DNA of 64,000 bases, taken from Minisyncoccota bacterium (GTDB taxonomy: Bacteria; Patescibacteriota; Minisyncoccia; Phycocordibacterales; Zambryskibacteraceae). The notes below the pieces were generated by a model. That model did no database searches. It worked only from the letters and a program-made list of their open reading frames with translations, and had not been told where the DNA came from. The first letter of the stretch is position 1. The number at the start of each line of letters is the position of its first letter. The stretch lies in the NCBI GenBank assembly GCA_020059045.1, contig JAGVCW010000029.1, forward strand, positions 39,469 to 103,468, in the 5' to 3' direction. Shown here one piece after another: positions 1 to 59,618 of the stretch. Position numbers and translations under genes: made by a program.

Positions 1-977
1 TGCTGTCGGGGTTTCTGATTACCTATCTATTGTTAAGAGAAAGAGAAAGGACTGGAGGTATATCCTTAAAAAACTTTTATATAAGAAGAATTTTGCGTAT
101 CTGGCCGGTGTACTTCACTACTCTTATTGTAGGTTTTTTTGTTCTGCCATATGTTATGTATCAACTGATAGGTAATGAAGTTCTTCCTTTTCTTGCTAAT
201 CCACCGCTTGAAGCTTTGCCAAAATATATTTTTTTTCTGGCTAATTTTTCACTAGCATTTAATGGAGGAGCTAGTGTGCCAACAGATATACTTTGGTCTA
301 TATCTGTAGAAGAACAGTTCTATCTTGTCTGGCCCTGGGTTCTATCAATTGTACCGGAAAAGTATCTGACAAAAGTTCTATACATAATTTTGATTATTGC
401 GGCAGTATACAGGTTTGTATACGCTTCAACTTATGAGATTGTAGCCTATTCTACTTTTTCCGTAATGTCTGACTTAGCAGTGGGCTGTTTGCTTGCAATA
501 TTTGTAATAAATAAAAGCCGATTCCTAGAGGGTCTTAAAAATAGAACAAAATGGCTAACGATCCCAGTTTATATTTTTACTGCCGCACTAATTATGGGAA
601 GACATGCGATCTTTAGTTCTTTTGTAGATAACACAATTATGTATTCATTATCTGCCGTATTTATTCCGCTAACACTTACTTTGTTATTTGCGTTTATAAT
701 TTTTGAGCAAAATGAGTCAGTGTTCTCACTTTTCAAGGCTGGCCGATCTCGCTTGCTAACAAATCTAGGTAAAATTTCTTATGGTCTATATTCATACCAT
801 ATGATAGCTATATCTATTGTTATGATATTTGCTATTAAACTTAATCTTCTGGTTTTTTATTCTTCCCTTGTAAGATGGATACTTTTTGGAGTTGCCTCAC
901 TTCTAGTTGCGGTCCTTCTCTCACTATTATCATATAACTTTGTCGAGAAGAAATTTCTTAATAAAAAACCGATCTAA
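1..977 (+). CDS. Acyltransferase family 3 (OafA/YrhL-like) integral-membrane O-acyltransferase, 5'-partial at window edge
   Basis: Frame stays open upstream of the TTG at 30 to the window edge (…LSGFLITYLLLRE…). Motif SGFLITY…RRILRIWPVYF is typical of Acyltransferase_3. Multiple predicted TM helices. Confidence 0.6.
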   Translation, partial: LSGFLITYLLLRERERTGGISLKNFYIRRILRIWPVYFTTLIVGFFVLPYVMYQLIGNEVLPFLANPPLEALPKYIFFLANFSLAFNGGASVPTDILWSISVEEQFYLVWPWVLSIVPEKYLTKVLYIILIIAAVYRFVYASTYEIVAYSTFSVMSDLAVGCLLAIFVINKSRFLEGLKNRTKWLTIPVYIFTAALIMGRHAIFSSFVDNTIMYSLSAVFIPLTLTLLFAFIIFEQNESVFSLFKAGRSRLLTNLGKISYGLYSYHMIAISIVMIFAIKLNLLVFYSSLVRWILFGVASLLVAVLLSLLSYNFVEKKFLNKKPI

Positions 978-984
978 ACTTGTA

Positions 985-1671
985 TTACTGTGCTGTAGTT
1001 GTAGCTTTTTCTTGTCTCTCGTTTTCAAGCCTCCATACTTTGAGTTGAGGAATAATTGTTTCCATTTCGTCTATATTTTTGTAGTTGTAATAAACGTCAT
1101 CACCAATTAGCAGGGCTGGGAAATTCTCTTCAATTTTATTGATAGATATAAGGGTTTGGAGGGCACCCAGATCAAGGTTGTAGTCAAAAGAGTACACTCT
1201 AAGCTCAGGGAAGTCTTCTCTAAGCTTCGTAAGAACTAGACTTTGTTTGCCGCAGTCCTCGCATTTTGCTCCGTAAAAGTAAATTATAAAAACATGCTTT
1301 GTCCCACATTTTTCTCGAATCCGGTTCATTAGTAGATAATCCTTAATTTCGAGCAGTGAGTAATTTCTCTTCAAGGCCATGACTTCAGGATCGTCACTTC
1401 CACGGCTAACTTCCGTATATGATAGTTTCTCGCCAAGAGATCCTAACTCCTGTGACAGAGCAGTGGTTCCTATTTCCTTACAAGAGAACTGCTCAAGAAG
1501 GGCAGTCTGCACCTCTGAAGAGAGAATATTCACAGAAATTTGGTCATGTATGGAGCGTATCTCCTCGACACGTTTGTCGCTAAAATATCTACTAAGTGTT
1601 ATAGCTGAAAAGAAAATAATTGCTGTAATAAGAAATGTAAAAACATATTTTTTCCAATCAACTTCATGCAT
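985..1671 (-). CDS. Membrane-anchored thioredoxin-fold protein with CxxC (CEDC) motif
   Basis: N-terminal TM helix. C-x-x-C in 'FYGAKCEDCGKQ' in a thioredoxin-like context. No closer family recognised. Confidence 0.45.
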   Translation of the reverse strand: MHEVDWKKYVFTFLITAIIFFSAITLSRYFSDKRVEEIRSIHDQISVNILSSEVQTALLEQFSCKEIGTTALSQELGSLGEKLSYTEVSRGSDDPEVMALKRNYSLLEIKDYLLMNRIREKCGTKHVFIIYFYGAKCEDCGKQSLVLTKLREDFPELRVYSFDYNLDLGALQTLISINKIEENFPALLIGDDVYYNYKNIDEMETIIPQLKVWRLENERQEKATTTAQ

Positions 1672-1675
1672 GCTG

Positions 1676-2911
1676 TTATTTCCACGCTACACTTCTAGAA
1701 AAAATGGTGTTAAAAAGTGCACTTAAAAGCCAGAATGGAACAATAAAGCTATAGAAAGCAAGAAAATATATGATGTCCATTGAAAAATAAAAATGTCCAT
1801 CAGTGAGACGTCTTGAAAGTACTAATATGCAAATAATTAGTGCAATTCCCACAACAGTTAGAAATATTGCAGCACTAGAGCTTACAAAAAACCAGTCAAA
1901 TGATAGGCTAAACTCGGGCCCAATGGTCATGAGTTTGGTGATGCTTTCCTGAGCTCGTACTGCGTTACTCCAAAAAAGAGAAAAAAGGAAGAATATTGAA
2001 GAAAAAATAGAAATGATTGCCATAGGCAAAATGTAAAGTCCTATGTTTCCATATTTCTTGTTTAGAAAAAGAAATTTGTAATCCAAGGAATTGTTCAGAA
2101 AGCCGTATGTCCAGCGTCTACGCTGCTTGTAAAGGGTTTTTAAGGTTTTTGGAGCAACAGTATAAACGATGGCGTCATGCGCGTTCACTATTTTAAGGTG
2201 GTTGGCCTGCATTCTAAGAGCAATTTCCAAGTCTTCTGTGTTATGGGCATGTCTGTAGTCTCCAATAAGACTAAATACTTCTCTTCTGTATATTGAAAAA
2301 GGTCCTGGAGTAACAAAAATAGCACCCAAATAATCAAGCATTTTGCGGTAAAATATTCCCCAGGCATACTCAACTTTCTGCATTAACTCAAGTACATTCT
2401 TAGGGTCGTGGACTCTCACGGCGGGAGTAACCGCCATCGTTTCGGCGTCATTGAAATGATTCATGATTCTTTTTAATGCAGATTTCTCTACAAACGAATC
2501 TGCATCAAGACAGCCTACAAATTCTCCAGATGTTTTCTGCAAACCAAAGTTTAGAGCCGTATACTTCCCACCATTTGGTTTAGAGTAAACTTTAATTTGA
2601 TTACTACTATTAAATTGATCAAGAATTTTTAAAGTATTGTCACTACTCCCGTCATCAATTACTAGGATTTCTAACTTATCTTTTGGGTAGTCAAGCATAA
2701 GTAGGGAAGAAAGAGTTTTTAGTATAGTCTCTTCCTCGTTGTAACAGGGCACCATTATTGAGACTGTGGGGAAATGGGCAGGTTCCTTATATTCACTCTG
2801 TACCTTAAGTGTGGAGCGTTTTTCAAAGTATGTTATAAGCAAAAATATCTCAAAAAAAAGTGAGAAAAATAAGGAAACATATACCAGTACCTCTGAAATG
2901 GCTCCAAACAT
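1676..2911 (-). CDS. Processive family-2 glycosyltransferase (NodC/PgaC/cellulose-synthase-like)
   Basis: DDGSSD, DADS (DxD) and QRRRW (QxxRW) motifs. N-terminal TM plus C-terminal TM bundle. Confidence 0.7.
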   Translation of the reverse strand: MFGAISEVLVYVSLFFSLFFEIFLLITYFEKRSTLKVQSEYKEPAHFPTVSIMVPCYNEEETILKTLSSLLMLDYPKDKLEILVIDDGSSDNTLKILDQFNSSNQIKVYSKPNGGKYTALNFGLQKTSGEFVGCLDADSFVEKSALKRIMNHFNDAETMAVTPAVRVHDPKNVLELMQKVEYAWGIFYRKMLDYLGAIFVTPGPFSIYRREVFSLIGDYRHAHNTEDLEIALRMQANHLKIVNAHDAIVYTVAPKTLKTLYKQRRRWTYGFLNNSLDYKFLFLNKKYGNIGLYILPMAIISIFSSIFFLFSLFWSNAVRAQESITKLMTIGPEFSLSFDWFFVSSSAAIFLTVVGIALIICILVLSRRLTDGHFYFSMDIIYFLAFYSFIVPFWLLSALFNTIFSRSVAWK

Positions 2912-3737: not shown

Positions 3738-6080
3738 ATGAAAATTTCCTACAAATGGTTAGAAACATACTTTGATAGCCCCCTTCCCTCTTCAGAAAAG
3801 ATTTCGGAATTATTAACCATACATGCATTTGAGGTTGAAGGAATTGAGAGCCAAAATGGTGATTCAATTTTAAACATAAAAGTACTTCCCGATAGAGCAC
3901 ATGATGCTCTCTCGCATCTTGGCATGGCAAGGGAAGTGGCTCTACTTACTGGGCTACAAATTAAAAATGAGTTTATAAAGCAGAAGGTTGGTGTATTCCC
4001 AGAGTCAAATATCGCAAGAATAGAAGTTGAAAATGAAAAATTATTTCCAAGGCTTACACTGCTAGTAATTGAGAATGTTCGGGTCAACGAGAGTCCAGTA
4101 TGGTTGAGAGAGAGATTGGATTCCATAGGCCAAAAGTCAATAAACAATATTGTAGATGCCACCAATTTTGTAATGTTTGAAATTGGCCAGCCGCTGCATG
4201 CGTATGATGTTTCTAAGCTTGCCGGTGAGGGAGATATAAAAATAGGGGTACGCTACGCAAATGAGGGTGAAATACTTAAAACACTTGACGGTAAGGATCT
4301 TGTCCTAAATAAAGAAAATGTAGTCATATTTGATGGAAACACTGAAAATAAAAAGGCTTTGGGAGTCGCAGGGATAAAGGGTGGGGAGGCAAGCAAGATA
4401 AATTCAAAGACAAAAACTGTTGTCATAGAAGCGGCGAATTTTGACCCAGTGGCAATAAGGCTTTCATCCAAGTCTCTTGACCTACGTACTGATGCATCAG
4501 TCCGATTTGAAAATGGTATTACACCTGAATACACAGCGAGTGCTCTAAGTAGGGTTGCAAACATAATTCTTGATATTGCGAGCAATACAGACACTCGAGT
4601 GGAAGGGATAGCAGATTACTATCCTCGACGTGCAAATCCCTATAAAGTAGGAGTATCGCTTTCAGAAATACAAAGTGTAATTGGCACACAAGTCTCTCAA
4701 AATAAAGTTGAGGAAATTCTTCAGAGGAGAGGATATGAGTGGAAACTTGTAACACCTCGAGAGGAAATTGTGTCTCTTGCACAGAAACTAATTGGCATGC
4801 CCTATAAATTTGGCTCAAGTGTTACATATGACAGTCCAAGAACTTTTGATTGTTCTTCTTTTGTAAGTTATTTGTTTGTTCAGACGGGCATAGCGCTTCC
4901 TAGGATGACAGTTGATCAGTTTGTGTATACAGAGCAAGTTTTGGAAAGTGAATTACAGGATGGAGATTTAGTTTTTATAAATAGTAATGATGGAAAGATT
5001 CACCATGAATCAATAGAGTTTATGCAAGGTACTCCTGTACCGAAAGGTGTAGATCATAACGGAATATATGCAGGAGAGGGAAGTATTATTCATGGGTCAC
5101 CATTTCACAATAAAATCGTAAAGGAGAATATTAGTGAGGTGGTGAGTAGAGGCAGAACTCTTGTGGGCTATAGAAGAGTGTTGGGAATAAATGAGCCTCA
5201 CTTTGTGATTACAATACCCGCCGAGCGTCTAGACTTACGTATAAAAGAAGATTTAATTGAGGAAATAGTAAGAATTTATGGTTATGAAAACATAATTTCA
5301 AAAGAAATTAAAACAGAGGAAGCCGTAAATATTGATAAAAAATCTTATTATATAGAAAAAATAAAAAACTTCTTTGTTTCAGAGGGTTTTTCTGAGATCT
5401 ATTCATATTCATTCAAATCAAGAGGTGTAAGAGAAGTACTTAATCCCATTGCAACCAATAAGGCATTCCTCAGGGAAAATTTGGCTGACGAATTGAAAGA
5501 TGTTATGAAAAAAAACATTTTGAATACTGATCTACTTGGTTTGAGTAAAATTAAACTTTTTGAAATAGGTACAGTTTTCGGCGCAACAAGTGAGAATATA
5601 TCCCTGGCTTTTGCTATAAGTGGGAAGAAGGATGAAGCTTATATAGAGAAAATTAAATCTGCTCTTAATGATTTGCTTCAATCTGAGGTTGTTTATACCG
5701 AAAAGGGAGGGGTAATGGAGGCAAATATCGAGACTCCAATTGAGCGGGCAAATGGTCCACTTCATCCGTATGCATATAAAGGTAGTAAAAATGTAAAATT
5801 TAAGGAATATTCAGTATATCCATTTATTGTTCGAGATTTAGCTGTTTTCGTACCAAATGATTTGCCAAAAGATGCATTGCTCGATTTGATTCGGAAAGAA
5901 GCTGGGGAGCTATTGGTTAACTTGCGTTTGTTTGATGAATTTTCGAAAGATGGAAAAGTTTCTTATGCATATCGTCTTATATTCCAGTCAATAGATAGAA
6001 CTCTTACTGATGAGGAGGTGAATAGTGTTATGACAAAAATTGTGGGTGCGGTGACAGGAATGGGCTGGACTGTAAGATAA
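3738..6080 (+). CDS. pheT: Phenylalanine--tRNA ligase beta subunit with an inserted NlpC/P60 papain-like domain
   Basis: N-terminus MKISYKWLETYF… matches the B1 domain. B5 domain signature (…EEIVRIYGYENI) and a C-terminal FDX-ACB-like end. About 150 aa NlpC/P60-like insert (GMPYKFG…FDCSSFVSYLF…GDLVFINS…VDHNGIYAGEGSIIHGSP) sits inside B5. Confidence 0.9.
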   Translation: MKISYKWLETYFDSPLPSSEKISELLTIHAFEVEGIESQNGDSILNIKVLPDRAHDALSHLGMAREVALLTGLQIKNEFIKQKVGVFPESNIARIEVENEKLFPRLTLLVIENVRVNESPVWLRERLDSIGQKSINNIVDATNFVMFEIGQPLHAYDVSKLAGEGDIKIGVRYANEGEILKTLDGKDLVLNKENVVIFDGNTENKKALGVAGIKGGEASKINSKTKTVVIEAANFDPVAIRLSSKSLDLRTDASVRFENGITPEYTASALSRVANIILDIASNTDTRVEGIADYYPRRANPYKVGVSLSEIQSVIGTQVSQNKVEEILQRRGYEWKLVTPREEIVSLAQKLIGMPYKFGSSVTYDSPRTFDCSSFVSYLFVQTGIALPRMTVDQFVYTEQVLESELQDGDLVFINSNDGKIHHESIEFMQGTPVPKGVDHNGIYAGEGSIIHGSPFHNKIVKENISEVVSRGRTLVGYRRVLGINEPHFVITIPAERLDLRIKEDLIEEIVRIYGYENIISKEIKTEEAVNIDKKSYYIEKIKNFFVSEGFSEIYSYSFKSRGVREVLNPIATNKAFLRENLADELKDVMKKNILNTDLLGLSKIKLFEIGTVFGATSENISLAFAISGKKDEAYIEKIKSALNDLLQSEVVYTEKGGVMEANIETPIERANGPLHPYAYKGSKNVKFKEYSVYPFIVRDLAVFVPNDLPKDALLDLIRKEAGELLVNLRLFDEFSKDGKVSYAYRLIFQSIDRTLTDEEVNSVMTKIVGAVTGMGWTVR

Positions 6081-10157: not shown

Positions 10158-10790
10158 TTAAAACTCCCTCGTTTCACCCTCGATGAAAGGTATGAATGCT
10201 ATTCCTTGAGGGGGGAGAAGCTCTGCTGGTATTCTGTGATCAAGACCGGAGCGCTTAAAGTCGTGTACTGGAAATGCAACTTTTGGTTGCAGCTCGAGAG
10301 CGTAATCTACTGAGTCAGAAATACGGAGCCAAGGTCCTGTTACTGGCAGGGCCAAAATTTCTATCGGTCTTTCCGGATTCGTAAATGAATCTCCGGGATA
10401 CCACAAACGCCCATCAATAAAAAAACCTGTATTTTCTGAAACAGGGATTGCGGTGTGAACCACTGCATGCTTCTCGCCAATTCCTACAAGACTAATTCCG
10501 CCAAGATCTGCCTTGTCCAAATGTTTAATTAAGACATGCTCTATTTTCTCGGCACTTAGAAGTTTGCTCACAGAAGTGTTTGCGTGTATTACCACATTCG
10601 GGTTGTTACTCACCACCTTCTTCAATGATACTAAGTGAAAATGATCTTGATGCTCGTGTGTGAAGAGAACATAATCCAAGTTTTTTATTTTAGAGTGAGT
10701 TTCTACACTATAACTTCCAGGGTCAGTAAGTATCCGCTTGCCCTTGGTCTCTATTAGCAAACAACATTGTCCTAGTTTGGTTATTCTCAT
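10158..10790 (-). CDS. MBL-fold metallo-hydrolase
   Basis: HxHxDH motif (THEHQDHFH) plus downstream His/Asp ligands. Confidence 0.7.
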   Translation of the reverse strand: MRITKLGQCCLLIETKGKRILTDPGSYSVETHSKIKNLDYVLFTHEHQDHFHLVSLKKVVSNNPNVVIHANTSVSKLLSAEKIEHVLIKHLDKADLGGISLVGIGEKHAVVHTAIPVSENTGFFIDGRLWYPGDSFTNPERPIEILALPVTGPWLRISDSVDYALELQPKVAFPVHDFKRSGLDHRIPAELLPPQGIAFIPFIEGETREF

Positions 10791-12016
10791 TATTTTTTTG
10801 AAGAAATTTCTTCAAGTAACTTTCTTGTGAAATCTCCTGTGCTTAATTGTCCAAGATTACCATTGTCACGTGACTCAACTTGTACTTTGTTTGCTTCAAT
10901 CTCCTTATCTCCGATGATAAGAATGTAAGGAACCTTTTCTGTTTTTACATTTCGGATTTTCTTGCCGAGAGTTTCATTGCTTTCATCAAGCTCAACACGG
11001 ATACCAGCTGTTTGTAAGTCACTAAAAATTTTCTTCGCATATTCGAGATGAGCTTCTGCAATTGGAAGTATTTTAGCCTGCACGGGTGAGAGCCAGAGCG
11101 GGAAAGCTCCCGAATATTTCTCTATTAGGAAAGCCATAATACGCTCGATTGCACCAATTGAAGAACGATGAACCACAAAAGCAGAATGTTCCTTACCATC
11201 TTCGCCCATATATTTGAGATCAAATCTATGTGGAGAAGAAAGATCGTATTGAACAGTGAAGGCAGTATCTTCCTTGCCATTGGCATTCCTCATGTTTATG
11301 TCAATCTTTGGGCCGTAAAAAGCTGCATCGTCTGAGGCTTCTTTGAAATCTACCTTGCGCTTCTTCATCGCTTCTCGAAGAAGGTTTTCCGCTTTTTCCC
11401 ATCCAGCATCGTCTTTATAGTATTTTTCTGTATTACTACGATCTCCTAGTGAAAGTACATACCAATAATCTTTGCCAAGTTCAAGATTAAATATGCTGTT
11501 GACATACTCAATAAGATCCAATGCTTTAGCAATTTCGTCCACGGCTTGTTCCTCGTCTTTACATATAATATGGGCATCAGACAGACAAAAAGCACGTACT
11601 CTAAGAAGCCCCATAAGTTCTCCAGACTGCTCGTAGCGATAAAGCTGAGCAAGTTCAGCTATTCGCACGGGAAGATCACGGTAAGAGCGAGGCTTCGATA
11701 GGTAGAGTTCGAAGTGATGAGGACAAGTCATTGGTCTTAGCATAAATTCTTCGTCATCAATCACAATGGGGGCGTACATCTTGTCTTTATACATTGGGTA
11801 ATGACCAGATTTTTTGTACAGATCAAGCTTAGCGATATCAGGTGTACGTACATGCAAATAACCTCGACGTATTTCCTCGTCGATAATAAAACGCTCAAGC
11901 TCTCGTCGAACTGTCGCACCCTTCGGAAGCCAAATAGGAAGTCCCTTTCCTATTGCGTCAGAAAAAGTGAAAAGTTCAAGCTCCCTTCCAATTTTTTTAT
12001 GATCCCTTTCCTCCAT
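10790..12016 (-). CDS. thrS: Threonine--tRNA ligase, catalytic plus anticodon-binding domains only (no N-terminal TGS/editing domains)
   Basis: Class-II core with zinc-site residues (MTCPHHFELY). C-terminal HGPT-like anticodon-binding domain. 408 aa, versus about 640 aa for canonical ThrRS. Confidence 0.85.
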   Translation of the reverse strand: MEERDHKKIGRELELFTFSDAIGKGLPIWLPKGATVRRELERFIIDEEIRRGYLHVRTPDIAKLDLYKKSGHYPMYKDKMYAPIVIDDEEFMLRPMTCPHHFELYLSKPRSYRDLPVRIAELAQLYRYEQSGELMGLLRVRAFCLSDAHIICKDEEQAVDEIAKALDLIEYVNSIFNLELGKDYWYVLSLGDRSNTEKYYKDDAGWEKAENLLREAMKKRKVDFKEASDDAAFYGPKIDINMRNANGKEDTAFTVQYDLSSPHRFDLKYMGEDGKEHSAFVVHRSSIGAIERIMAFLIEKYSGAFPLWLSPVQAKILPIAEAHLEYAKKIFSDLQTAGIRVELDESNETLGKKIRNVKTEKVPYILIIGDKEIEANKVQVESRDNGNLGQLSTGDFTRKLLEEISSKK

Positions 12017-12232
12017 TTTTGTTTAAATTAAAACGCCCTAGTAAATGCACAACAGCAGAGTTGTGAACTTACTAGGACGAATTATCGCGGTTCCACCTAG
12101 TTTCCTTTGCCTATTATTAGGTAAAAGCTCTCTTTTTAAAGAATTAGGCTTTCGCTCCATTTCAGGACTGTGGTTGGTAGCCACAACAATCTTCTTTGTT
12201 CCTTAATAATAAGAAAAAGATCTTTAGATGTC
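12017..12232 (-). promoter_or_regulatory. T-box riboswitch leader (Thr specifier, ACC) upstream of thrS
   Basis: Minus-strand GGUGGAACCGCG (T-box consensus GGUGGUACCGCG) at 12097-12108. Terminator hairpin CCUAGUAAGUUCAC…GUGCAUUUACUAGG plus U-run at 12021-12077 directly before the thrS ATG. Upstream stem GUGG/CCAC with loop CUACCAA displays ACC followed by a purine. Confidence 0.6.
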
Positions 12233-12234
12233 AA

Positions 12235-15200
12235 TCAAAGAACTTTTGCTTTCTCAATTATTATACTTGTCTCGTCGTTTCTCTTGGAGACCTTACCAAC
12301 TAAAGCAATAATTTTATCAGCAACGAAAATATCTTTATGGGTTTCTAGTGTTTTCGGGAACACGACAGCTTCGATGTTTCCAGTAAAGTCTGATATTTTT
12401 ATAAAAAGCATTCTCTGGTTTTGTTTGGTGAGAATTTCACGACAATTTTCTATAAGCCCGGCAATCATAACTTCTTGTCCTTCCTTCGACTCTGTTTTAA
12501 TTTTCGCTATGTTTATATCTCGTTTCTCAATCTTTTCTCTGTGTGCTTCCAGAGGATGGCCGGAAATGTATAGGCCCAAGAGCTCTTTTTCCCAGGCAAG
12601 GAGCTCTATCATTGTGGCGCTCTGCGCGGGTGGTAGTGAAATGCTTACATCAGATGTTCCAAACAAAGAATCCTGGTTGCCACCATCTACAATTCTTGAT
12701 TTGTGATACTCCAGCAGTAAATCAATATTTGAAAGCATTTGACCGCGCTCACCAAACTCGTCTAAGGCACCGCACTTTATAAGCGACTCAAGAGATTTCT
12801 TGTTTAGGTTTCTATCTTTGATTCGATCAAGAAAGTCAGCAAGTGATTTAAATTTTCCTGCAGATTTCCTCTCTTTCACTATTGTGTTTGCTATTCCTTC
12901 GCCAAAATTTTTGATAGTTGTGAGGCCAAATCGAATCGTATCTGGCGCATGTTCTTTACGAGCAACAGAAAATCCTTGGAAGCTTTCATTGACTGAGGGA
13001 GGAAGCACTGGGATGCCCAGACGCTTGCATTCGTTTATTAGGATACCAATCTTTTCAACTTCACCTGAGTCCGCAGTCAAAACTGCAGACATGTAAATTG
13101 CAGGCCAGTTCGCTTTGAGATAGGCGGTTTGGTATGCCACGCGCCCATAACTTGCGGCGTGTGCTTTGTTGAATCCATAAGATTGGAATGGTTCAAAAAG
13201 CTTCCACATCATTTCTGCAAATGCTTTAGTTTGTCCGTTCTTCTTTATCCCCTCAATAAACTTTTCCTTTTGGGCAGCCATTTCTGCTGGGATTTTCTTA
13301 CCGACGGCTTTTCTGAATTTGTCTACCTCAAGCCAGCTATATCCAGCAAGTTCGAGAGCCGAGAAAAGAAGATCATCTTGGTACACGAGAAGACCGTAGG
13401 ATTCCTTCAGGAATTTCTCCATTCGTGGGTCGGGGTACGAAACAAGCTTTGGGTTGTTCTTTCTTTTTATATAATCGGGTATTACCTCCATTGGTCCGGG
13501 ACGGTAAAGAGCAACCATAGCATTTATATCGTGGATAGAAGTCGGCTTGAGGTCGACAAGAAAGCGAGTCATACCCGCACCACTTAATTGGAAAAGACCT
13601 TCTGTGTCACCTCGAGCAAGAAGTTCAAATGTTTTCTTGTCATCGAGAGGTATTGTGTCAATGTCTATAACAAGCTTTTCTATTGTTTCAATTCTATGTA
13701 TTGCGTCAGCTATGATTGCAAGATTTTTGATACCCAGGAAGTCAAATTTGAGAAGGCCTGCATCTTCTATGGCATACATATCATATTGAGTAATGATTTT
13801 GCCTTCACCCTTTGGGTCAAATTGTAGAGGAACGAAGTTTGTGAGGGGCTCCGGTGAAATAACCACGCCTGCCGCGTGTACTGAGATGTGACGAGCACAA
13901 CCTTCAATCTTTTTACCCATGTCGATGATTGCTTTCACGTCCACATCCTTCTCGTAAAGTTCTTTCAACTCAGGCACAAGTGTAAAAGCTCGCTTAATAG
14001 TCATGGGGAAACCCTGTGAGCCAAGGGGAATAAGTTTGGCAACTTTGTCACCTGTAATATATGGATAGCCAAGTGCGCGTGCGACATCACGTACCACACC
14101 TCGAGCAAGCATTGTTCCAAATGTTCCAATTTGGGCTACCATTTCTCTACCATACTTTTGTCTTGCGTACTCGATCATCTCGTCACGGCGGTCGTCAGCA
14201 ATATCAAGGTCAATATCTGGAGCACTAGGTCGCTCAGGATTTAGAAATCTTTCAAACGGGAGTTTGTAGTCTAATGGGTCAACTGTTGTAATAAATGTTA
14301 AAAAGGAAACAATCGAGCCAGCAACGGAGCCTCGAGTGTTTGTCAAAATTTTGTTCTCACGGGCATAACGGATTAGGTCTGCCATTACGAGGAAGTATGG
14401 TGAAAACCCTTTGTTCTTTATCACCTCTAGTTCGTACTCGATTCTTTCTTTAATCTCTTGTGTTTCAATCAAGTTCCTCTTCTCCAAACCTTCGTAGACT
14501 AAACGCCTGAGCTCGCTATCGTACGTTCTACCTTCCGGAATTGTGTAGATGGGAAATACCCATGATCCAAGTTCAAGTTTAAGATTGCAGACATTTACTA
14601 TTTTTTCAACGTTATCAAGAGCCTCGGGCATACTCTTGAAATATTCTCTAGCCACTTTCTGTGATATGAAAGAAAAGTCCTCGTTACCGTCATTCCAATT
14701 GCGGTCTTTGTCACCAATGTTTTGAACAGCTACCAGAGTGTCGCGAGCCTTCTTATCTTCAGGGTCAATGTAGTAGACATCGTGAGCAGCAACTATTTGT
14801 GTACCCGTTTCTTTGGCAAGTGAAACAAGCTTTTCCATTTGTGCTGTGTGGTTATCTATCTCCGGGTGGTGGGTTATCTCAATGTAGAAATCGTCTCCAA
14901 AAACTTTTTTGTACCAACCTATGAGCTCTTTTGCTTTTGCAGTATCAGAGCCCTGCATGGCTTTCGCAATATCGCCAGAAAATGATGGAGAAATGCAGAT
15001 TAGTCCGGCAGAACTAGCTTCAAGTAAGTCTTTGTCTATACGAGGTTTGTAGTAGAAGCCTTCAATATGCGATTTTGTCACTAAATTAATAAGATTCCTA
15101 TAACCAGTAGCATCTTTAGCAAGAAGTACGAGTCTGTAGCGTGAACTATCAACGCCTGCTTGCTTGTCACTCATTTTGCGCAGGGCAAGATACGCATCAA

Positions 15201-43498: not shown

Positions 43499-43963
43499 TT
43501 ATGTTTTACATGGACCTACGAGACGGACTATGCCTTTATCTTTTTCTACCGTTTTAATCCCAGGACATGGTTCTTCAAATGAGCCTGGTAAGTACAAGAG
43601 AAGTATTTTGTTCTTGTGGTAGCCAACAATATAGTATCCAGTAAAGTTTGGACCACTGGTAAAACTTTGCAGGAGTTCAAACTGGTCACCGTTCCCTAGA
43701 ATATCTACGGAGCCTACATAGCCAGCCTTCCTGAGACCGTCATTGAAGGCAAAGTGGAGTGATAGATATATCCCAATAAACATAACAACCATCGCAACCA
43801 CAAGCCTGAGAGCTAATTTATCTGCGACTTGTACAGCAACATGACATGTAAGTAAGAAACCCAGCATCACGATCGCAACGGCAATCCACGCTAAGTACAT
43901 GTGAACTCCATGAAAAGGAAGAACTGCTAAATGCAAAATATCACAAAATTTGAGAAGACGCAA
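43499..43963 (-). CDS. Membrane-anchored protein, PCPGIK-Cys family paralog 2
   Basis: …YYIVGYHKNKILLLYLPGSFEEPCPGIKTVE…LVGPC. Weak terminator hairpin at 43465-43489. Confidence 0.5.
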   Translation of the reverse strand: MRLLKFCDILHLAVLPFHGVHMYLAWIAVAIVMLGFLLTCHVAVQVADKLALRLVVAMVVMFIGIYLSLHFAFNDGLRKAGYVGSVDILGNGDQFELLQSFTSGPNFTGYYIVGYHKNKILLLYLPGSFEEPCPGIKTVEKDKGIVRLVGPCKT

Positions 43964-44635
43964 GTACTAAAATTCGGTACTTATCCCCTCATTGCAAGGA
44001 ACCAAAGATTTCGTGCTATATTTAAAAAGATGAAAGAAACTTACAGGATGTGGCAGATTGTCCGCCATTTTAAGAAGATAGAGCTTCTGATAGTAGGGTG
44101 GGATGAGATAAAGATTCAAAGAGAACCAAATGATAAGCTGGAATTACCTGACTATGTCCAGAAACTCACAAATGTTTTAATGCAAACTAGAGATCCTCGA
44201 ACTCATCGGTCTAGCTTAGCCCAACACTTTGGTATTGATAGATACACTAAGAAGTATCCCATGACTAAGGAATTTATGAAGAAATTTGGTGCAATGGAAC
44301 AGAAGGAAAAGGATAAATATAATAATTTAACAAGGAAATTTATTGAGGATGCACAGTTGAGGATAGGGAGTTGTATAGACGCTGGGTATATCAAGGAAGA
44401 CAGCGAAGATTCTAGAGATATTTATCTTCCTCTAAAGGGAAAAAAATTTGCCACTGTTTCTGGTCTTATAAATGCGTGGGGTGATGACATTAGTAGTATT
44501 CTAGGTTCATGGAGGGTTGCAATCATTGCCATTACAGGAACATCAGCAGTATTTAATTTAGATTGGATTATTAACAAGATCATTGTTATAACATGCAAAA
44601 TATACCCTGTGTTAAACTGGTGTAGTAATATATAA
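43931..44635 (+). CDS. Hypothetical protein
   Basis: 234-aa ORF. Its 5' end overlaps paralog 2, so the true start may be internal (for example 44030). Confidence 0.35.
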   Translation: MQNITKFEKTQVLKFGTYPLIARNQRFRAIFKKMKETYRMWQIVRHFKKIELLIVGWDEIKIQREPNDKLELPDYVQKLTNVLMQTRDPRTHRSSLAQHFGIDRYTKKYPMTKEFMKKFGAMEQKEKDKYNNLTRKFIEDAQLRIGSCIDAGYIKEDSEDSRDIYLPLKGKKFATVSGLINAWGDDISSILGSWRVAIIAITGTSAVFNLDWIINKIIVITCKIYPVLNWCSNI

Positions 44636-44640
44636 ATTAT

Positions 44641-44772
44641 ATGGACGACAACAATTATTTAAATTATATAAACCAGAATATTCAGCAAGTATCACGCAGA
44701 ATGGAGTATGTCTACATTCTTTTAGGTCTTATTTTGATATTGGGGATTATAGCTCTAGTGCATTTTTGGTGA
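44641..44772 (+). CDS. Small single-TM protein (43 aa)
   Basis: MDDNNYLNYINQNIQQVSRRMEYVYILLGLILILGIIALVHFW. Below the ORF-track length cutoff. Confidence 0.25.
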   Translation: MDDNNYLNYINQNIQQVSRRMEYVYILLGLILILGIIALVHFW

Positions 44773-44859
44773 ATTGTTCCCATGCAACAATTTGTTGCCT
44801 TTCGTATGTTGGTTGGAGTATAATATAAATACACAAAAGAAAACTCGCTGGCGGGCCCA

Positions 44860-45315
44860 CCAGACGAGTCTTCTCAACACTGGCCGATGTTTACTTCCTA
44901 GCTCTGGTGAAAACCAGAGCTTTGCGTTTTAGGAGTTAAGCAGGAACGCACATAGGCCAACCCCTTAGACCATATTGGTATGAGTCTAGAAGTCTCCCAT
45001 TTACTTTCCTGAACCTCCTAAAGATTAACTTGTACCCGAGGGGACAAGTATTCTTGTAAGTTGCCAAAGTAATTTTGGTTAAACCAGTAATTACTCGGAC
45101 GGCGCCGTACAAGTTTGCTTCTTTCTTACGAAAAAAGCTCCACTGACCGGTGCTTGAGGTCGAAAACGGTTACCCGCTAACGACCCTGCGCTATGCAGAG
45201 CCTTTCGACCCTGCAAGCACCCGTCACTGAAGCCTTTCGCTTTCGCTAGAACCCTTTGTCACGAGCACTGGCAACAACACCGGTCACCTTTCTTGCTATG
45301 CATTAACCAAAGGTA
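44860..45315 (-). ncRNA. Structured noncoding RNA with its own promoter and terminator; candidate RNase P RNA
   Basis: No ORF on either strand. Minus-strand promoter TTGCTT-17-TATAAT at 45321-45349. 3' hairpin plus U-run near 44840-44870. Internal GAAAGGCUCUGCAUAGCGCAGGGU…GCGGGUAACCG resembles the RNase P P4/P5-region consensus (GGAAAG…GCUCCAUAGGGCAGGGU…GGUAAC). Confidence 0.4.
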
Positions 45316-45320
45316 ACTCT

Positions 45321-45349
45321 ATTATAGCAAATTTTTTCCTGTAAAGCAA
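45321..45349 (-). promoter_or_regulatory. Sigma-70-type promoter driving the ncRNA
   Basis: Minus-strand TTGCTT, 17-nt spacer, TATAAT. Confidence 0.55.
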
Positions 45350-45359
45350 TCAAGATGTG

Positions 45360-46300
45360 GTAAGATTTCCACATGTCTGAAGAAAAATTCCGTAGATTAC
45401 TTGGAAAAGCTATCGGGAAGCCCGTTGAACTAAAGTCTGGAAAACGGGTATTGGGGAAAGTCTCTGATTATAGCGGAAAGCGAACTCGTCCACATAAGCT
45501 TGGAGGTGTTTCGCAGAAACGAAGTGGTAAGTCCCGCGGATAGAGCGTTTTAGCTGTCCCCAGAATCCCTCTATCGTGTTTGTGTGAATACCACCTCTAA
45601 CATACTCTCTCCTAGCGTGCTGGACGGACTGATTTTCATAGCCGATCTTGGGAAGCTTTGCATATACTAGAAACTCATCTGTCATAATGGTTGCATCCTT
45701 TGAGATATTGGCCTTAATCTTGCCGAGCATTATGTGAGTTTCCCTTGCACCGATTTTGTGCGCTCTAACTTTACCCTGTCTTTCTACCATTCCCATTAAA
45801 GCGGACTTGTTCTTAAACTTTGTAGCGTGAGTGCCCTTCTTTCCAAAGTAAGTCTCATCAACTTCAACTGTACCAGTTAAAAGGTTGCCGTCTTGCTCCA
45901 TGAGCTTTCTGATTTGAGTACCTATTCTCCAAGCACACTTATAGGTAACACCGAAGTGTCTTTGTAGCTCCTTAGCAGAGATGCCATTCTTGGCGATAGA
46001 GAAAAGGAAGATAGCCTCAAACCAAACTGTGAGAGGAGTAGAGGACTTCTTGAAGATAGTATCAGCCAGAGGGTGTATCTGGTGGCCAGCAGAATTAGTC
46101 CAGCACTTTCGGCCAGCGGTGCGGTAGTAGCCCTTTACGCTAGGGTACTTCTCTTTGAAAAGGTGGTTTAGGCACTTCTCCTCTGTCCCAAATTCCTTCC
46201 TAAAATCTTTAATGTTGTATTTCATTGCTAATTGGCTATCTACCTTGTAATACAGCCATTCTAGCAAACCCCTACTTGTTGTCAAGGGATAAGTACCTAA
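45360..46300 (-). mobile_element. IS1595-family insertion sequence (ends not defined)
   Basis: Single transposase gene with short flanks. Terminal inverted repeats could not be identified by eye. Confidence 0.4.
45410..46225 (-). CDS. IS1595-family (ISXO2-like) DDE transposase
   Basis: ISXO2-like transposase blocks …TDEFLVY…NTIEGFWGQLKR…YVDEFAFRYN. The ORF is open to 46285. Confidence 0.85.
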   Translation of the reverse strand: MKYNIKDFRKEFGTEEKCLNHLFKEKYPSVKGYYRTAGRKCWTNSAGHQIHPLADTIFKKSSTPLTVWFEAIFLFSIAKNGISAKELQRHFGVTYKCAWRIGTQIRKLMEQDGNLLTGTVEVDETYFGKKGTHATKFKNKSALMGMVERQGKVRAHKIGARETHIMLGKIKANISKDATIMTDEFLVYAKLPKIGYENQSVQHARREYVRGGIHTNTIEGFWGQLKRSIRGTYHFVSAKHLQAYVDEFAFRYNQRLSPIPVFQTLVQRASR

Positions 46301-46305
46301 AATTC

Positions 46306-47508: not shown

Positions 47509-49050
47509 ATGGCCAAGAAAATAATAGAAATCGGGCCAGACAAACATCTCTTATTTCAACAAGTGAATGATGTTTCGTACGGTCTTTATGATGTGAAGCT
47601 TTCAGCAAAGGCAAAAGAAAAAGTAAAAAAATCTAGAGCTACAATTGAAAAAATGATAGCTGATAAGAAGGTTGTGTACGGAGTTACAACAGGATTTGGA
47701 AATTTTAAGGATAAAATAATTTCAGCAGACGACGTTGAGGAACTTCAAAAAAATTTAATTAGAAGTCACTCTGCTGGAGTAGGTGAGCTACTTTCTAATG
47801 AACAAGTAAGGGCGGCAATACTTGTGAGACTAAATTCTCTTATCCAAGGATATTCGGGGGTAAGAATAGAATTGGTTGAGTTTTTGTGCAAATTAATAAA
47901 CCTGGGCATAACCCCAGTGGTTCCTTCTCAAGGGTCGGTGGGTTCGTCCGGTGATCTTGCCCCTCTTTCGCACATTGCCCTTGTCCTTATGGGCGAGGGG
48001 ATGGCCTTTTACAAAGATAAATTAATGACAGGGAAAGATGCCCTAGCAAAAGCCGGGTTAAAACCACTTACGTTTGCAGCAAAAGAGGGACTTGCGTTTA
48101 ACAACGGTACATCTGTTATGACGGGAATTGCCGCACCAATTCTTGTGCGATCAAAGAAAATAATTGAACTTGCAGATATAGCATGTGCCTTGACCCTCGA
48201 AGCAGTGTGCGGTGTATCCGCAGCATTTGATGAGAGGATCCACAAACTACGTCCGCACCCAGGACAAATTGTTGCTGCTAAAAATATATTATCTTTTGTA
48301 TCTAAATCTCGACTGGTGGGTTCCTTCCCCAATAGAATACAGGATTCATATTCACTGAGATGTTCTCCACAAGTCCACGGAGCAATAAGGGATGCATATA
48401 GTTATGTTGAAAGTGTTTTAGAAATAGAGATTAACTCAGCTACAGATAATCCACTAATTTTCCCTGATCAAAAAGAAGTTCTTTCGGGCGGAAATTTCCA
48501 TGGAGAGCCGATTGCAATCAGTTTTGACACACTGGGTATTGCACTTTCTGAATTAGCAAATATATCGGAAAGAAGAATTGCAAAACTGGTAGACTCATCT
48601 ACAAGTAACGGCTTGCCAGCATTTTTGGTACCAATAAAGAATGCTGGGCTACATAGTGGATTTATGATTCCACAATATACTGCGGCATCGCTAGTATCTG
48701 AAAACAAAGTATTGGCGCATCCTGCTTCAGTAGACTCTATCCCAACATCAGCAAACCAGGAAGACCACGTCAGTATGGGAACAATAGCTGTGAGAAAATC
48801 ATTGAAAATTTTGGAAAATACTGAATATGTTATTGCAATTGAAATTCTCGCGGCATGCCAAGCGATTGATTTTAGAAACCAAGATCACTTAGGTGTTTAT
48901 ACTAAAAAGATTTATAAAATCGTTCGAGAGCAAATACCGTTTATGGCAAAGGACAGACAAATTTCTTTGGATATTGAAAAAACTAAATCGTTACTACCAA
49001 GAATTTTCAGCGAAATTGAAAAAATAAAGGCAAATAGAAATCGAAAGTAG
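47509..49050 (+). CDS. hutH: Histidine ammonia-lyase family (aromatic amino acid lyase; MIO triad Ser-Ser-Gly)
   Basis: GSVGSSGDLAPLSHIA; canonical HAL has ASG at this position. Full-length HAL/PAL fold. Confidence 0.8.
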   Translation: MAKKIIEIGPDKHLLFQQVNDVSYGLYDVKLSAKAKEKVKKSRATIEKMIADKKVVYGVTTGFGNFKDKIISADDVEELQKNLIRSHSAGVGELLSNEQVRAAILVRLNSLIQGYSGVRIELVEFLCKLINLGITPVVPSQGSVGSSGDLAPLSHIALVLMGEGMAFYKDKLMTGKDALAKAGLKPLTFAAKEGLAFNNGTSVMTGIAAPILVRSKKIIELADIACALTLEAVCGVSAAFDERIHKLRPHPGQIVAAKNILSFVSKSRLVGSFPNRIQDSYSLRCSPQVHGAIRDAYSYVESVLEIEINSATDNPLIFPDQKEVLSGGNFHGEPIAISFDTLGIALSELANISERRIAKLVDSSTSNGLPAFLVPIKNAGLHSGFMIPQYTAASLVSENKVLAHPASVDSIPTSANQEDHVSMGTIAVRKSLKILENTEYVIAIEILAACQAIDFRNQDHLGVYTKKIYKIVREQIPFMAKDRQISLDIEKTKSLLPRIFSEIEKIKANRNRK

Positions 49051-59242: not shown

Positions 59243-59375
59243 ATAGAAAATTATACTACATTAAATAAAAAAAGTAATACACTTAAGTCCACCATGTTTA
59301 TAAATATTTTAAGCCATTGAAAAAATGGTGAAAAAATAATAGCATAGTGAATTGTTAAGGTGTTTATGGCCCTAC

Positions 59376-59535
59376 TCATCTCGAGAGTACTCGAGATGAC
59401 GGGCAAGTAGCCCTATTCGCTTTGAGTACACTCGAAGCGACGGGCAAAGGCCCAATTCGCCTCGAGAGTACTCGCGACAATGGGCAAGCCCTATCGCCCT
59501 TCGGGGATACTCAGGACGATAGGTCTCTGGTTTTA
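59376..59535. repeat. Four degenerate tandem repeats of about 40 bp, each hairpin-forming and each starting with a copy of the tRNA-Glu 5' end (GCCCTAT…)
   Basis: Units at about 59376, 59418, 59458 and 59497. Internal palindromes around AGTACT (e.g. TCATCTCGAG-AGTACT-CGAGATGA). Directly abuts the tRNA at 59540. Confidence 0.7.
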
Positions 59536-59539
59536 AGTA

Positions 59540-59611
59540 GGCCCTATCGTCTATCGGTTAGGACACATCCTTCTCAAGGATGGAAGCGCGGTTCGATTCC
59601 GCGTAGGGTCA
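59540..59611 (+). tRNA. tRNA-Glu (anticodon CUC)
   Basis: Hand-folded cloverleaf: acceptor GGCCCTA/TAGGGTC, D-stem GTCT/GGAC, anticodon stem CATCC/GGATG with loop TTCTCAA, T-arm CGCGG-TTCGATT-CCGCG, discriminator A. CCA is not encoded. Confidence 0.8.
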
Positions 59612-59618
59612 CAAAGGC

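Follow-up and report, generated by a model that had tools for sequence, protein, structure and literature searches.

A probable structured RNA of about 475 nt was identified among the passenger DNA of an IS1595-family transporter IS, which entered the genome of a Minisyncoccota bacterium as a single unit. The DNA analyzed is a stretch of 64,000 nucleotides (contig JAGVCW010000029.1), here called the window, and all positions refer to it. The RNA belongs to no Rfam family and is without the defining features of RNase P RNA. It is probably a genuine but orphan structured non-coding RNA carried as transporter-IS cargo. The best explanation, which we hold with reasonable rather than high confidence, is that a non-coding RNA of ~475 nt, transcribed on its own and compactly folded, travels as a passenger of this IS1595 element and falls outside all described families.

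The transposable unit occupies 43976-46297 (2,322 bp). Its parts are arranged in the order left repeat, transposase gene, RNA gene, convergent ORF43 and ORF201, and right repeat. The features outside the RNA gene are as follows.

43968-43975: target-site duplication TAAAATTC, low-coordinate copy, directly abutting the terminus
43976-44001, plus strand: right inverted repeat GGTACTTATCCCCTCATTGCAAGGAA, its last 26 nt 100 % identical to the right end of sister element L011
44030-44635, plus strand: cargo gene ORF201, the true extent of a 234-codon ORF at 43931-44635, set by the start site of its relatives
44641-44772, plus strand: ORF43, encoding a small hydrophobic peptide (43 aa), directly after ORF201 and followed by a hairpin at 44784-44798
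45410-46225, minus strand: IS1595-family (ISXO2-like DDE) transposase gene (Pfam PF12762, E = 1.5e-36)
46272-46297, minus strand: left inverted repeat GGTACTTATCCCTTGACAACAAGTAG, containing the transposase promoter TTGACA-16-TAGAAT
46298-46305: target-site duplication TAAAATTC, high-coordinate copy, directly abutting the terminus

A search for further copies of the IS terminus recovered the inverted copy GGTACTTATCCCCTCATTGCAA at 43976. The GGTACTTATCCC termini at 43976 (+) and 46297 (-) were identical at 12 of 12 positions and at 20 of 40 when 40 nt were compared, and the terminal 12-mer is found at no other place in the window (0.008 occurrences expected). The inverted termini and the identical 8-mers flanking them indicate that 43976-46297 is one transposable unit. 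The transposase scored 126 bits against PF12762 (cut-off 27 bits) and its protein was 79-86 % identical to copies in genomes of Zambryskibacteria, Parcubacteria and Vogelbacteria. The RNA gene has the same orientation as the transposase gene and lies ~95 nt downstream of it. The initial annotation had placed the RNA immediately beside the IS, but it lies inside the IS-bounded unit; the alternative given there, an unrelated structured RNA possibly associated with the IS, was borne out in the form of an unclassified, copy-specific cargo of an IS1595-family unit. Homology with the closest transposase copies stops at ~45373, ~25 nt before the -35 box of the RNA. A position of the RNA outside the IS, as this end of homology had suggested, was overturned by the distal inverted terminus together with the target-site duplication. 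The RNA was not found in any of the 80 fetched loci that encode relatives of the transposase.

The extra DNA holding the unit sits in a conserved exonuclease-bacA-dsbA cluster. The order exonuclease, (bacA), dsbA was kept in most of the loci from 89 relatives; of 83 tabulated loci, 67 have dsbA downstream of the exonuclease gene. Here 3.9 kb separate the exonuclease gene from bacA, compared with 3-2,010 nt in relatives with bacA downstream of the exonuclease and 12-688 nt in the closest relatives. The unit fits exactly from the terminator of ORF142 to the start of ORF154. The whole unit including the RNA thus moved as one piece into the exonuclease-bacA gap, making the 8-bp duplication TAAAATTC. 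Neither nhmmer --max nor blastn found the RNA in the 89 exonuclease-anchored loci, and two single-sequence covariance models likewise gave no match to it in 86 of these (all but L171-L173). A weak match in L175 (E = 0.8) was regarded as noise.

Several other observations were made in these loci. In the same gap of L151, a TTGACA-17-TATACT promoter (within 1915-2365, minus strand) stands ahead of a GC-rich stretch of ~440 nt with few ORFs, which folds with z = -3.9 and ends in a hairpin and CGCCCCCACCA. This stretch had no Rfam or ARAGORN match and no copy in the other loci; it was rejected as a relative of the RNA, to which it is unrelated by alignment (z = 0.5-1.6). In L175, which belongs to a relative with the closest architecture, a perfect TTGACA-17-TATAAT promoter and a ~130-nt leader (4385-4612, plus strand) lie ahead of a small ORF in the exonuclease-bacA gap, and this leader may be cis-regulatory. 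The exonuclease gene is preceded by the HisRS gene in relatives and by a histidine ammonia-lyase gene here, while the class-II synthetase with a T-box lies 35 kb from the exonuclease (47509-49050 (+), 10790-12016 (-)). The replacement of HisRS by histidine ammonia-lyase and the distance of the synthetase point to a rearrangement at this boundary.

Five sister elements with the same transposase and the same termini were detected in CPR genomes.

L011: 5930-8451
L013: 5931-7381
L014: 5931-8062
L015: 604-2326
L050: 5945-8357

Each sister element has a distal inverted terminus, and their lengths range from 1,451 to 2,522 bp. Target-site duplications of 8 bp were present in all six copies of the family, each sister having its own perfect 8-mer. 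Conservation between copies is confined to the transposase module (unit positions 1-925) and the final ~26 nt at the right end. The cargo comprises 1,434 bp here (RNA, ORF43 and ORF201) and 559-1,641 bp in the sisters, where it is unrelated in sequence. Every copy has an inward-facing ORF of its own, with a start 36-56 nt inside the right end, and these ORFs are mutually unrelated; the one in L050 encodes an HNH homing endonuclease and is accompanied by an aspartyl-protease-like ORF. When a sliding fold scan was applied to the six elements (~200 window-strand tests), z values of -4 or below occurred in our copy only, at unit positions 961-1560 on the transposase strand (z -4.8 to -8.2). The other five elements showed no fold z below -3.3 and no structured segment. 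Since the structured segment is present in one copy only, the RNA appears to be cargo of that copy and not a transposition cofactor. Sister elements have moved without it, which suggests that the RNA is dispensable for transposition. Its role would be accessory rather than housekeeping.

PMC3129680, citing Siguier et al. (2009), traces the concept of the transporter IS to the IS1595 family. The unit has a DDE transposase, inverted repeats, an 8-bp duplication and passenger DNA. It resembles the IS1595 transporter ISs of Siguier, Gagnevin and Chandler (2009) in its DDE_Tnp_IS1595 transposase, its terminal inverted repeats, its 8-bp target-site duplication and the passenger DNA that separates the transposase gene from the right end. 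It differs from them in that a gene for a large structured non-coding RNA is among its passengers, that its host belongs to the CPR, and that the cargo is wholly different in six related copies with conserved termini and transposase.

The RNA gene itself consists of the following parts.

45321-45349, minus strand: promoter of the RNA, read from the sequence (TTGCTT, 17-nt spacer, extended -10 TGcTATAAT)
44838-45314, minus strand: structured RNA, ~475 nt, predicted start site through terminator U-tract
45141-45229, minus strand: domain A, a predicted three-way junction with a GUAA tetraloop (nt 86-174)
44928-45022, minus strand: domain B, a predicted long irregular hairpin that holds a GGAAAGU heptamer (nt 293-387)
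44845-44867, minus strand: intrinsic terminator hairpin UCGUCUGGUGGGCCCGCCAGCGA, G+C-rich, followed by UUUUCUUUU

On the minus strand, the -35 box TTGCTT is located at 45349-45344 and is separated by a spacer of 17 nt from TGcTATAAT at 45329-45321. The -35 box is weak, with three of six consensus positions, and the promoter scanner instead lists a weaker overlapping match (TTTACA-18-TAGAGT). From these sequence signals, transcription of the RNA would start at a dedicated extended -10 promoter and stop at a terminator of its own. Both signals have the correct orientation and ~475 nt lie between them, in agreement with the promoter-to-terminator noncoding transcript that had been proposed for the minus strand. 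The GC content had been described as above the local background, and this also held: it is 0.487 for the RNA, 0.417 for the 64-kb window and 0.317 for both flanks, and only 1.8 % of 470-nt windows have a GC content as high. The statement that no ORF longer than 20 codons occurs was correct for ATG starts (longest 18 codons) but not for TTG starts, which give ORFs of 58 and 41 codons on the minus strand and of 52 codons on the plus strand. The six frames of the region were compared with a collection of 5.8 billion proteins and no resembling protein was found. Reading UGA as a sense codon produced ORFs of 70-82 codons; this code was rejected because the neighboring genes read normally in code 11.

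A candidate antisense transcript of ~100 nt, based on consensus matches only, was noted on the plus strand against the 3' end of the RNA (44795-44930). Its parts are TTGCCT-18-TATAAT at 44795-44824 and a terminator-like hairpin at 44900-44921 followed by TTGCGTTTT.

Folding analysis indicated a transcript-like unit with an exceptional, strand-specific fold. The minimum free energy of the minus strand was -201.9 kcal/mol, compared with -143.7 +/- 6.2 kcal/mol for dinucleotide shuffles (z = -9.4), and the opposite strand gave z = -4.7. As a control from the same genome, all 470-nt windows of the 64-kb sequence were folded on both strands (1,080 folds) and corrected for GC content. The RNA was one of two outlier regions, with a GC-corrected z of ~-4.5 on the minus strand only. 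The second outlier was a region of palindromic repeats and tRNA-Glu near 59.3 kb. There, three to four tandem palindromic units of ~40 nt (59368-59530, plus strand) precede tRNA-Glu(CTC) at 59540-59612, and each unit opens with GGCCC(T/A)A, which resembles the 5'-terminal bases of the neighboring tRNA.

The predicted fold would be closed by a long-range helix between nt 32-39 and nt 424-431 (pair probability 0.98), which encloses the three-way junction, the long irregular hairpin and several GNRA-capped hairpins. Domain A had z = -7.9, compared with -4.9 on the other strand, and pair probabilities of 0.85-1.0; its covariance model R1 scored 114 bits on the transcribed strand but 29 bits on the complement. 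For domain B, z was -4.9 compared with -2.2 on the other strand, the pair probabilities were 0.87-0.99, and its covariance model R2 scored 115 bits on the transcribed strand but 24 bits on the complement. Four hairpins besides the two domains had z values of -3.3 to -4.8, and a local structure signal was absent from the 5' 85 nt. Of the 163 predicted pairs, 18 were G.U, and GUAA tetraloops were present in two loops. One loop contains the palindrome AUGCAU and the motif UGCAUAGC is present in two loops, which hints, speculatively, at self-assembly of the RNA. With DNA energy parameters, z was -7.4 on this strand and -4.2 on the other; the strand bias is the same, so energetics alone do not separate an RNA from a structure in single-stranded DNA. 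A fold predicted from one sequence alone is not proof of a functional structure, as a passage in PMC8250186 points out. Since no homologue was found, the fold described here is such a single-sequence prediction, without covariation support. Taken with the expression signals, it suggests a genuine non-coding RNA that works through its own structure.

Homologues of the RNA were searched for in several collections. BLAST against plasmids and phages gave no match, and three degenerate patterns gave none in a viral collection. No homologue was detected by nhmmer --max or blastn in 176 fetched loci (~1.7 Mb, about half of them from Parcubacteria), and the two single-sequence covariance models, R1 and R2, matched the window itself only.

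Homologues of the neighboring genes, and related loci, have source names that mark the organism as a CPR bacterium of Parcubacteria/Paceibacteria type. RNase P RNAs of CPR bacteria are often diverged and score below Rfam cut-offs (Lui et al., 2021; PMC8172020), and Rfam was therefore searched down to E <= 10. One search used the gathering score; a threshold of E <= 10 was applied in two more, first to 901 nt and afterwards to just the RNA. RF00010 and RF00011 gave no match at the gathering score or at E <= 10, including on the RNA alone. At E <= 10 there were only noise matches of 11-18 bits. The RNA and the 901 nt had no match at this threshold to models of tmRNA, SRP, 6S, HEARO or group I/II introns, nor to OLE, ROOL, GOLLD or raiA, and no rRNA or ribozyme fragment was found by Rfam in the RNA region. 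ARAGORN detected only tRNA-Glu in the window and no tmRNA. The model searches proposed in the initial annotation (RNase P, tmRNA, SRP, 6S and omega RNA) thus returned none of these families on the RNA. The best Rfam match was skipping-rope (RF02924) at UUGAGGUCGAAA in the three-way-junction domain, on the plus strand. It reached 17.6 bits against a cut-off of 36.7 bits (E = 0.2-0.4), on the opposite strand only, and was judged a chance match.

The P4 pseudoknot signature was tested as CR-I GAGGAAAGUCC near the 5' end together with CR-V (ACAGAA..GGCUUA). The best CR-I-like match was CAGGAAAGUAA at nt 306, with three mismatches. No complementary P4 3' strand was found at up to two mismatches and no CR-V at up to three mismatches in the RNA. 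The RNase P-like core motifs of the initial annotation were thereby reduced to a single GGAAAGU (nt 308 of ~470), and its suggestion of a divergent rnpB did not stand: the RNA matches neither RNase P model, has no P4, CR-I or CR-V, is not in the loci of the 89 relatives and lies inside a mobile element. Vertical inheritance, as for a housekeeping gene, was likewise not seen; the RNA belongs to a transposable unit with a target-site duplication and was not found in the 89 exonuclease-anchored loci. Compared with RNase P RNA, it is alike in its similar size, its closing long-range helix, its single GGAAAGU and its origin from a lineage with diverged RNase P RNAs, and it differs in the missing P4 pseudoknot, CR-I position and CR-V, in its location on a mobile element and in not being found in relatives.

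A diverged RNA of another kind was observed elsewhere in the window. A T-box leader match at 12070-12266 (minus strand) scored 43 bits against a cut-off of 93 bits (E = 3.4e-6). It adjoins, on the upstream side, the class-II aminoacyl-tRNA synthetase ORF at 10790-12016 (minus strand) and is probably a genuine but diverged T-box. Its score relative to the cut-off indicates that RNAs of this CPR genome are under-called at the Rfam thresholds.

Other large RNAs can be compared with the RNA as well. ROOL and GOLLD are frequently located on accessory or mobile DNA. The RNA is similar to ROOL, GOLLD, OLE and raiA in having several hundred nucleotides, multiple domains and GNRA-capped helices, and in being a stand-alone promoter-to-terminator gene on accessory or mobile DNA. 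It differs from them in fitting none of their covariance models and in lacking both a family and support from covariation. The bridge RNA of IS110 and the omega/HEARO RNAs of IS200/IS605 and IscB elements are also structured RNAs within an IS beside the transposase gene. In those elements the RNA is a conserved component and its partner is a non-DDE enzyme, whereas our RNA occurs in one of six copies and neighbors a DDE transposase gene.

The protein-coding cargo of the unit consists of ORF201 and ORF43. The start of ORF201 was set at 44030 because its relatives P0122 and P0123 begin at the same MKET.RMW. The N-terminal region of the protein is conserved and its C-terminal tail is hydrophobic. 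It gave no Pfam, PADLOC or PHROG match, and its AlphaFold model, with a pLDDT of 38.6, is too poor to use. The gene of P0122, the closest relative, lies in L010 and also has an IS terminus ahead of it. L010 contains a small hydrophobic ORF (969-1040, plus strand), dissimilar to ORF43, in the same position. An ORF201-type gene followed by a small hydrophobic ORF may be a recurrent two-gene cargo module. No such RNA was found with the ORF201 relatives in L004-L009, and the contig of L010 (SRR27977663_2943832), the only locus likely to hold a homologue of the RNA, ends 103 nt past the ORF201 homologue. A linkage of the RNA to ORF201 (ORF234) was rejected on the basis of L004-L009, whose relatives are without the RNA; L010 can be read only for 103 nt past the gene.

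The main rival to a functional cargo RNA is captured DNA without function, either a decaying fragment of a structured element (an intron or a foreign RNA gene) or a fortuitous fold. We consider this unlikely, though less so than any other alternative. The RNA is a complete orphan by sequence, structure-model and translated searches, it lies in fast-changing cargo, and an unrelated ORF-poor folding stretch is present in the same gap of L151. A fragment or a chance fold agrees poorly with an intact promoter and terminator that exactly bracket the folded region, with an extreme z that is spread over at least six separate helical elements, with Rfam searches that revealed no rRNA, intron or ribozyme fragment, and with a GC content enriched over the remaining cargo. 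The structure could also act as single-stranded DNA, for example as a single-strand origin or a recombination site, and the z values obtained with DNA parameters on the two strands (-7.4 and -4.2) are compatible with this. The chance of it is very slight, as the unit encodes no Rep, relaxase or recombinase except the DDE transposase, the promoter and terminator signals suit an RNA product, and G.U-rich helices stabilize more in RNA. An rnpB of the CPR bacterium, diverged too far for Rfam, is equally hard to maintain. In its favor, Lui et al. (2021; PMC8172020) found RNase P RNAs scoring under the Rfam cut-offs in 10 circular CPR genomes out of 35, the T-box in the same window scored 43 bits against a 93-bit cut-off, the ~475 nt are roughly of fitting size with one GGAAAGU heptamer, and no other rnpB is present within the 64-kb window. 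But Lui et al. obtained all of their RNase P RNAs with RF00010, whereas neither this model nor RF00011 gave a match here at E <= 10, even on the RNA alone. The heptamer at nt 308 is not near the 5' end and is accompanied by neither a P4 partner nor CR-V, and the RNA lies within a transposable unit with a target-site duplication and was not found in the syntenic loci of the 89 relatives.

Two further alternatives grant that the RNA is functional and assign it a specific partner. It might serve the IS itself, either in guiding or targeting, in the manner of the IS110 bridge RNA or the TnpB/IscB omega RNA, or by regulating transposition, which would suit its location inside the element, co-oriented with the transposase gene and ~95 nt downstream of it. 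This is improbable given that five sisters with intact termini and duplications of their own lack the RNA and carry unrelated cargo, that the transposase is an IS1595-family DDE enzyme and not TnpB, IscB or IS110, and that no HEARO or other Rfam match was obtained. Somewhat less remote, but still doubtful, is an antitoxin-like or regulatory partner of an ORF201-ORF43 membrane-protein operon, forming an IS-borne addiction or defence module. ORF43 is small and hydrophobic, ORF201 has a C-terminal hydrophobic tail, the RNA converges on both genes within a single cargo block, the sister cargo includes genes of selfish or defence type such as the HNH homing endonuclease, and the possible antisense transcript of ~100 nt would cross the 3' end of the RNA. 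On the other side, the terminators are ~50 nt apart, leaving no designed overlap, the ORF201 relatives in L004-L009 are without the RNA, PADLOC gave no matches, and 475 nt is far above the size of known antitoxin RNAs.

The favored explanation remains that the 2,322-bp transporter IS carries the RNA as a passenger. Most likely, the RNA acts through its fold as a piece of the accessory load of the element. More speculatively, it may work jointly with the adjacent membrane-protein genes ORF201 and ORF43. A broader proposal is that the RNA is the first member seen of a new class of large self-folding IS-cargo RNAs in CPR bacteria, possibly self-associating through AUGCAU, and that it would form, jointly with the ORF201 and ORF43 membrane proteins, an accessory RNA-protein module for defence, addiction or host interaction; we offer this as a conjecture with a small chance of being correct.

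The genomes of CPR bacteria are very small, and few of their non-coding RNAs have been characterised. The analysis does away with an annotation as rnpB that was tempting but mistaken, and provides a concrete candidate for RNA-seq, structure probing or cryo-EM. It also defines an IS1595 element family in Parcubacteria with conserved ends and freely exchanged cargo. An RNA gene of 475 nt with a promoter, a terminator and an exceptional fold would be an unusual passenger of an IS and, if real, would mean that transporter ISs can spread large structured RNAs besides protein genes.
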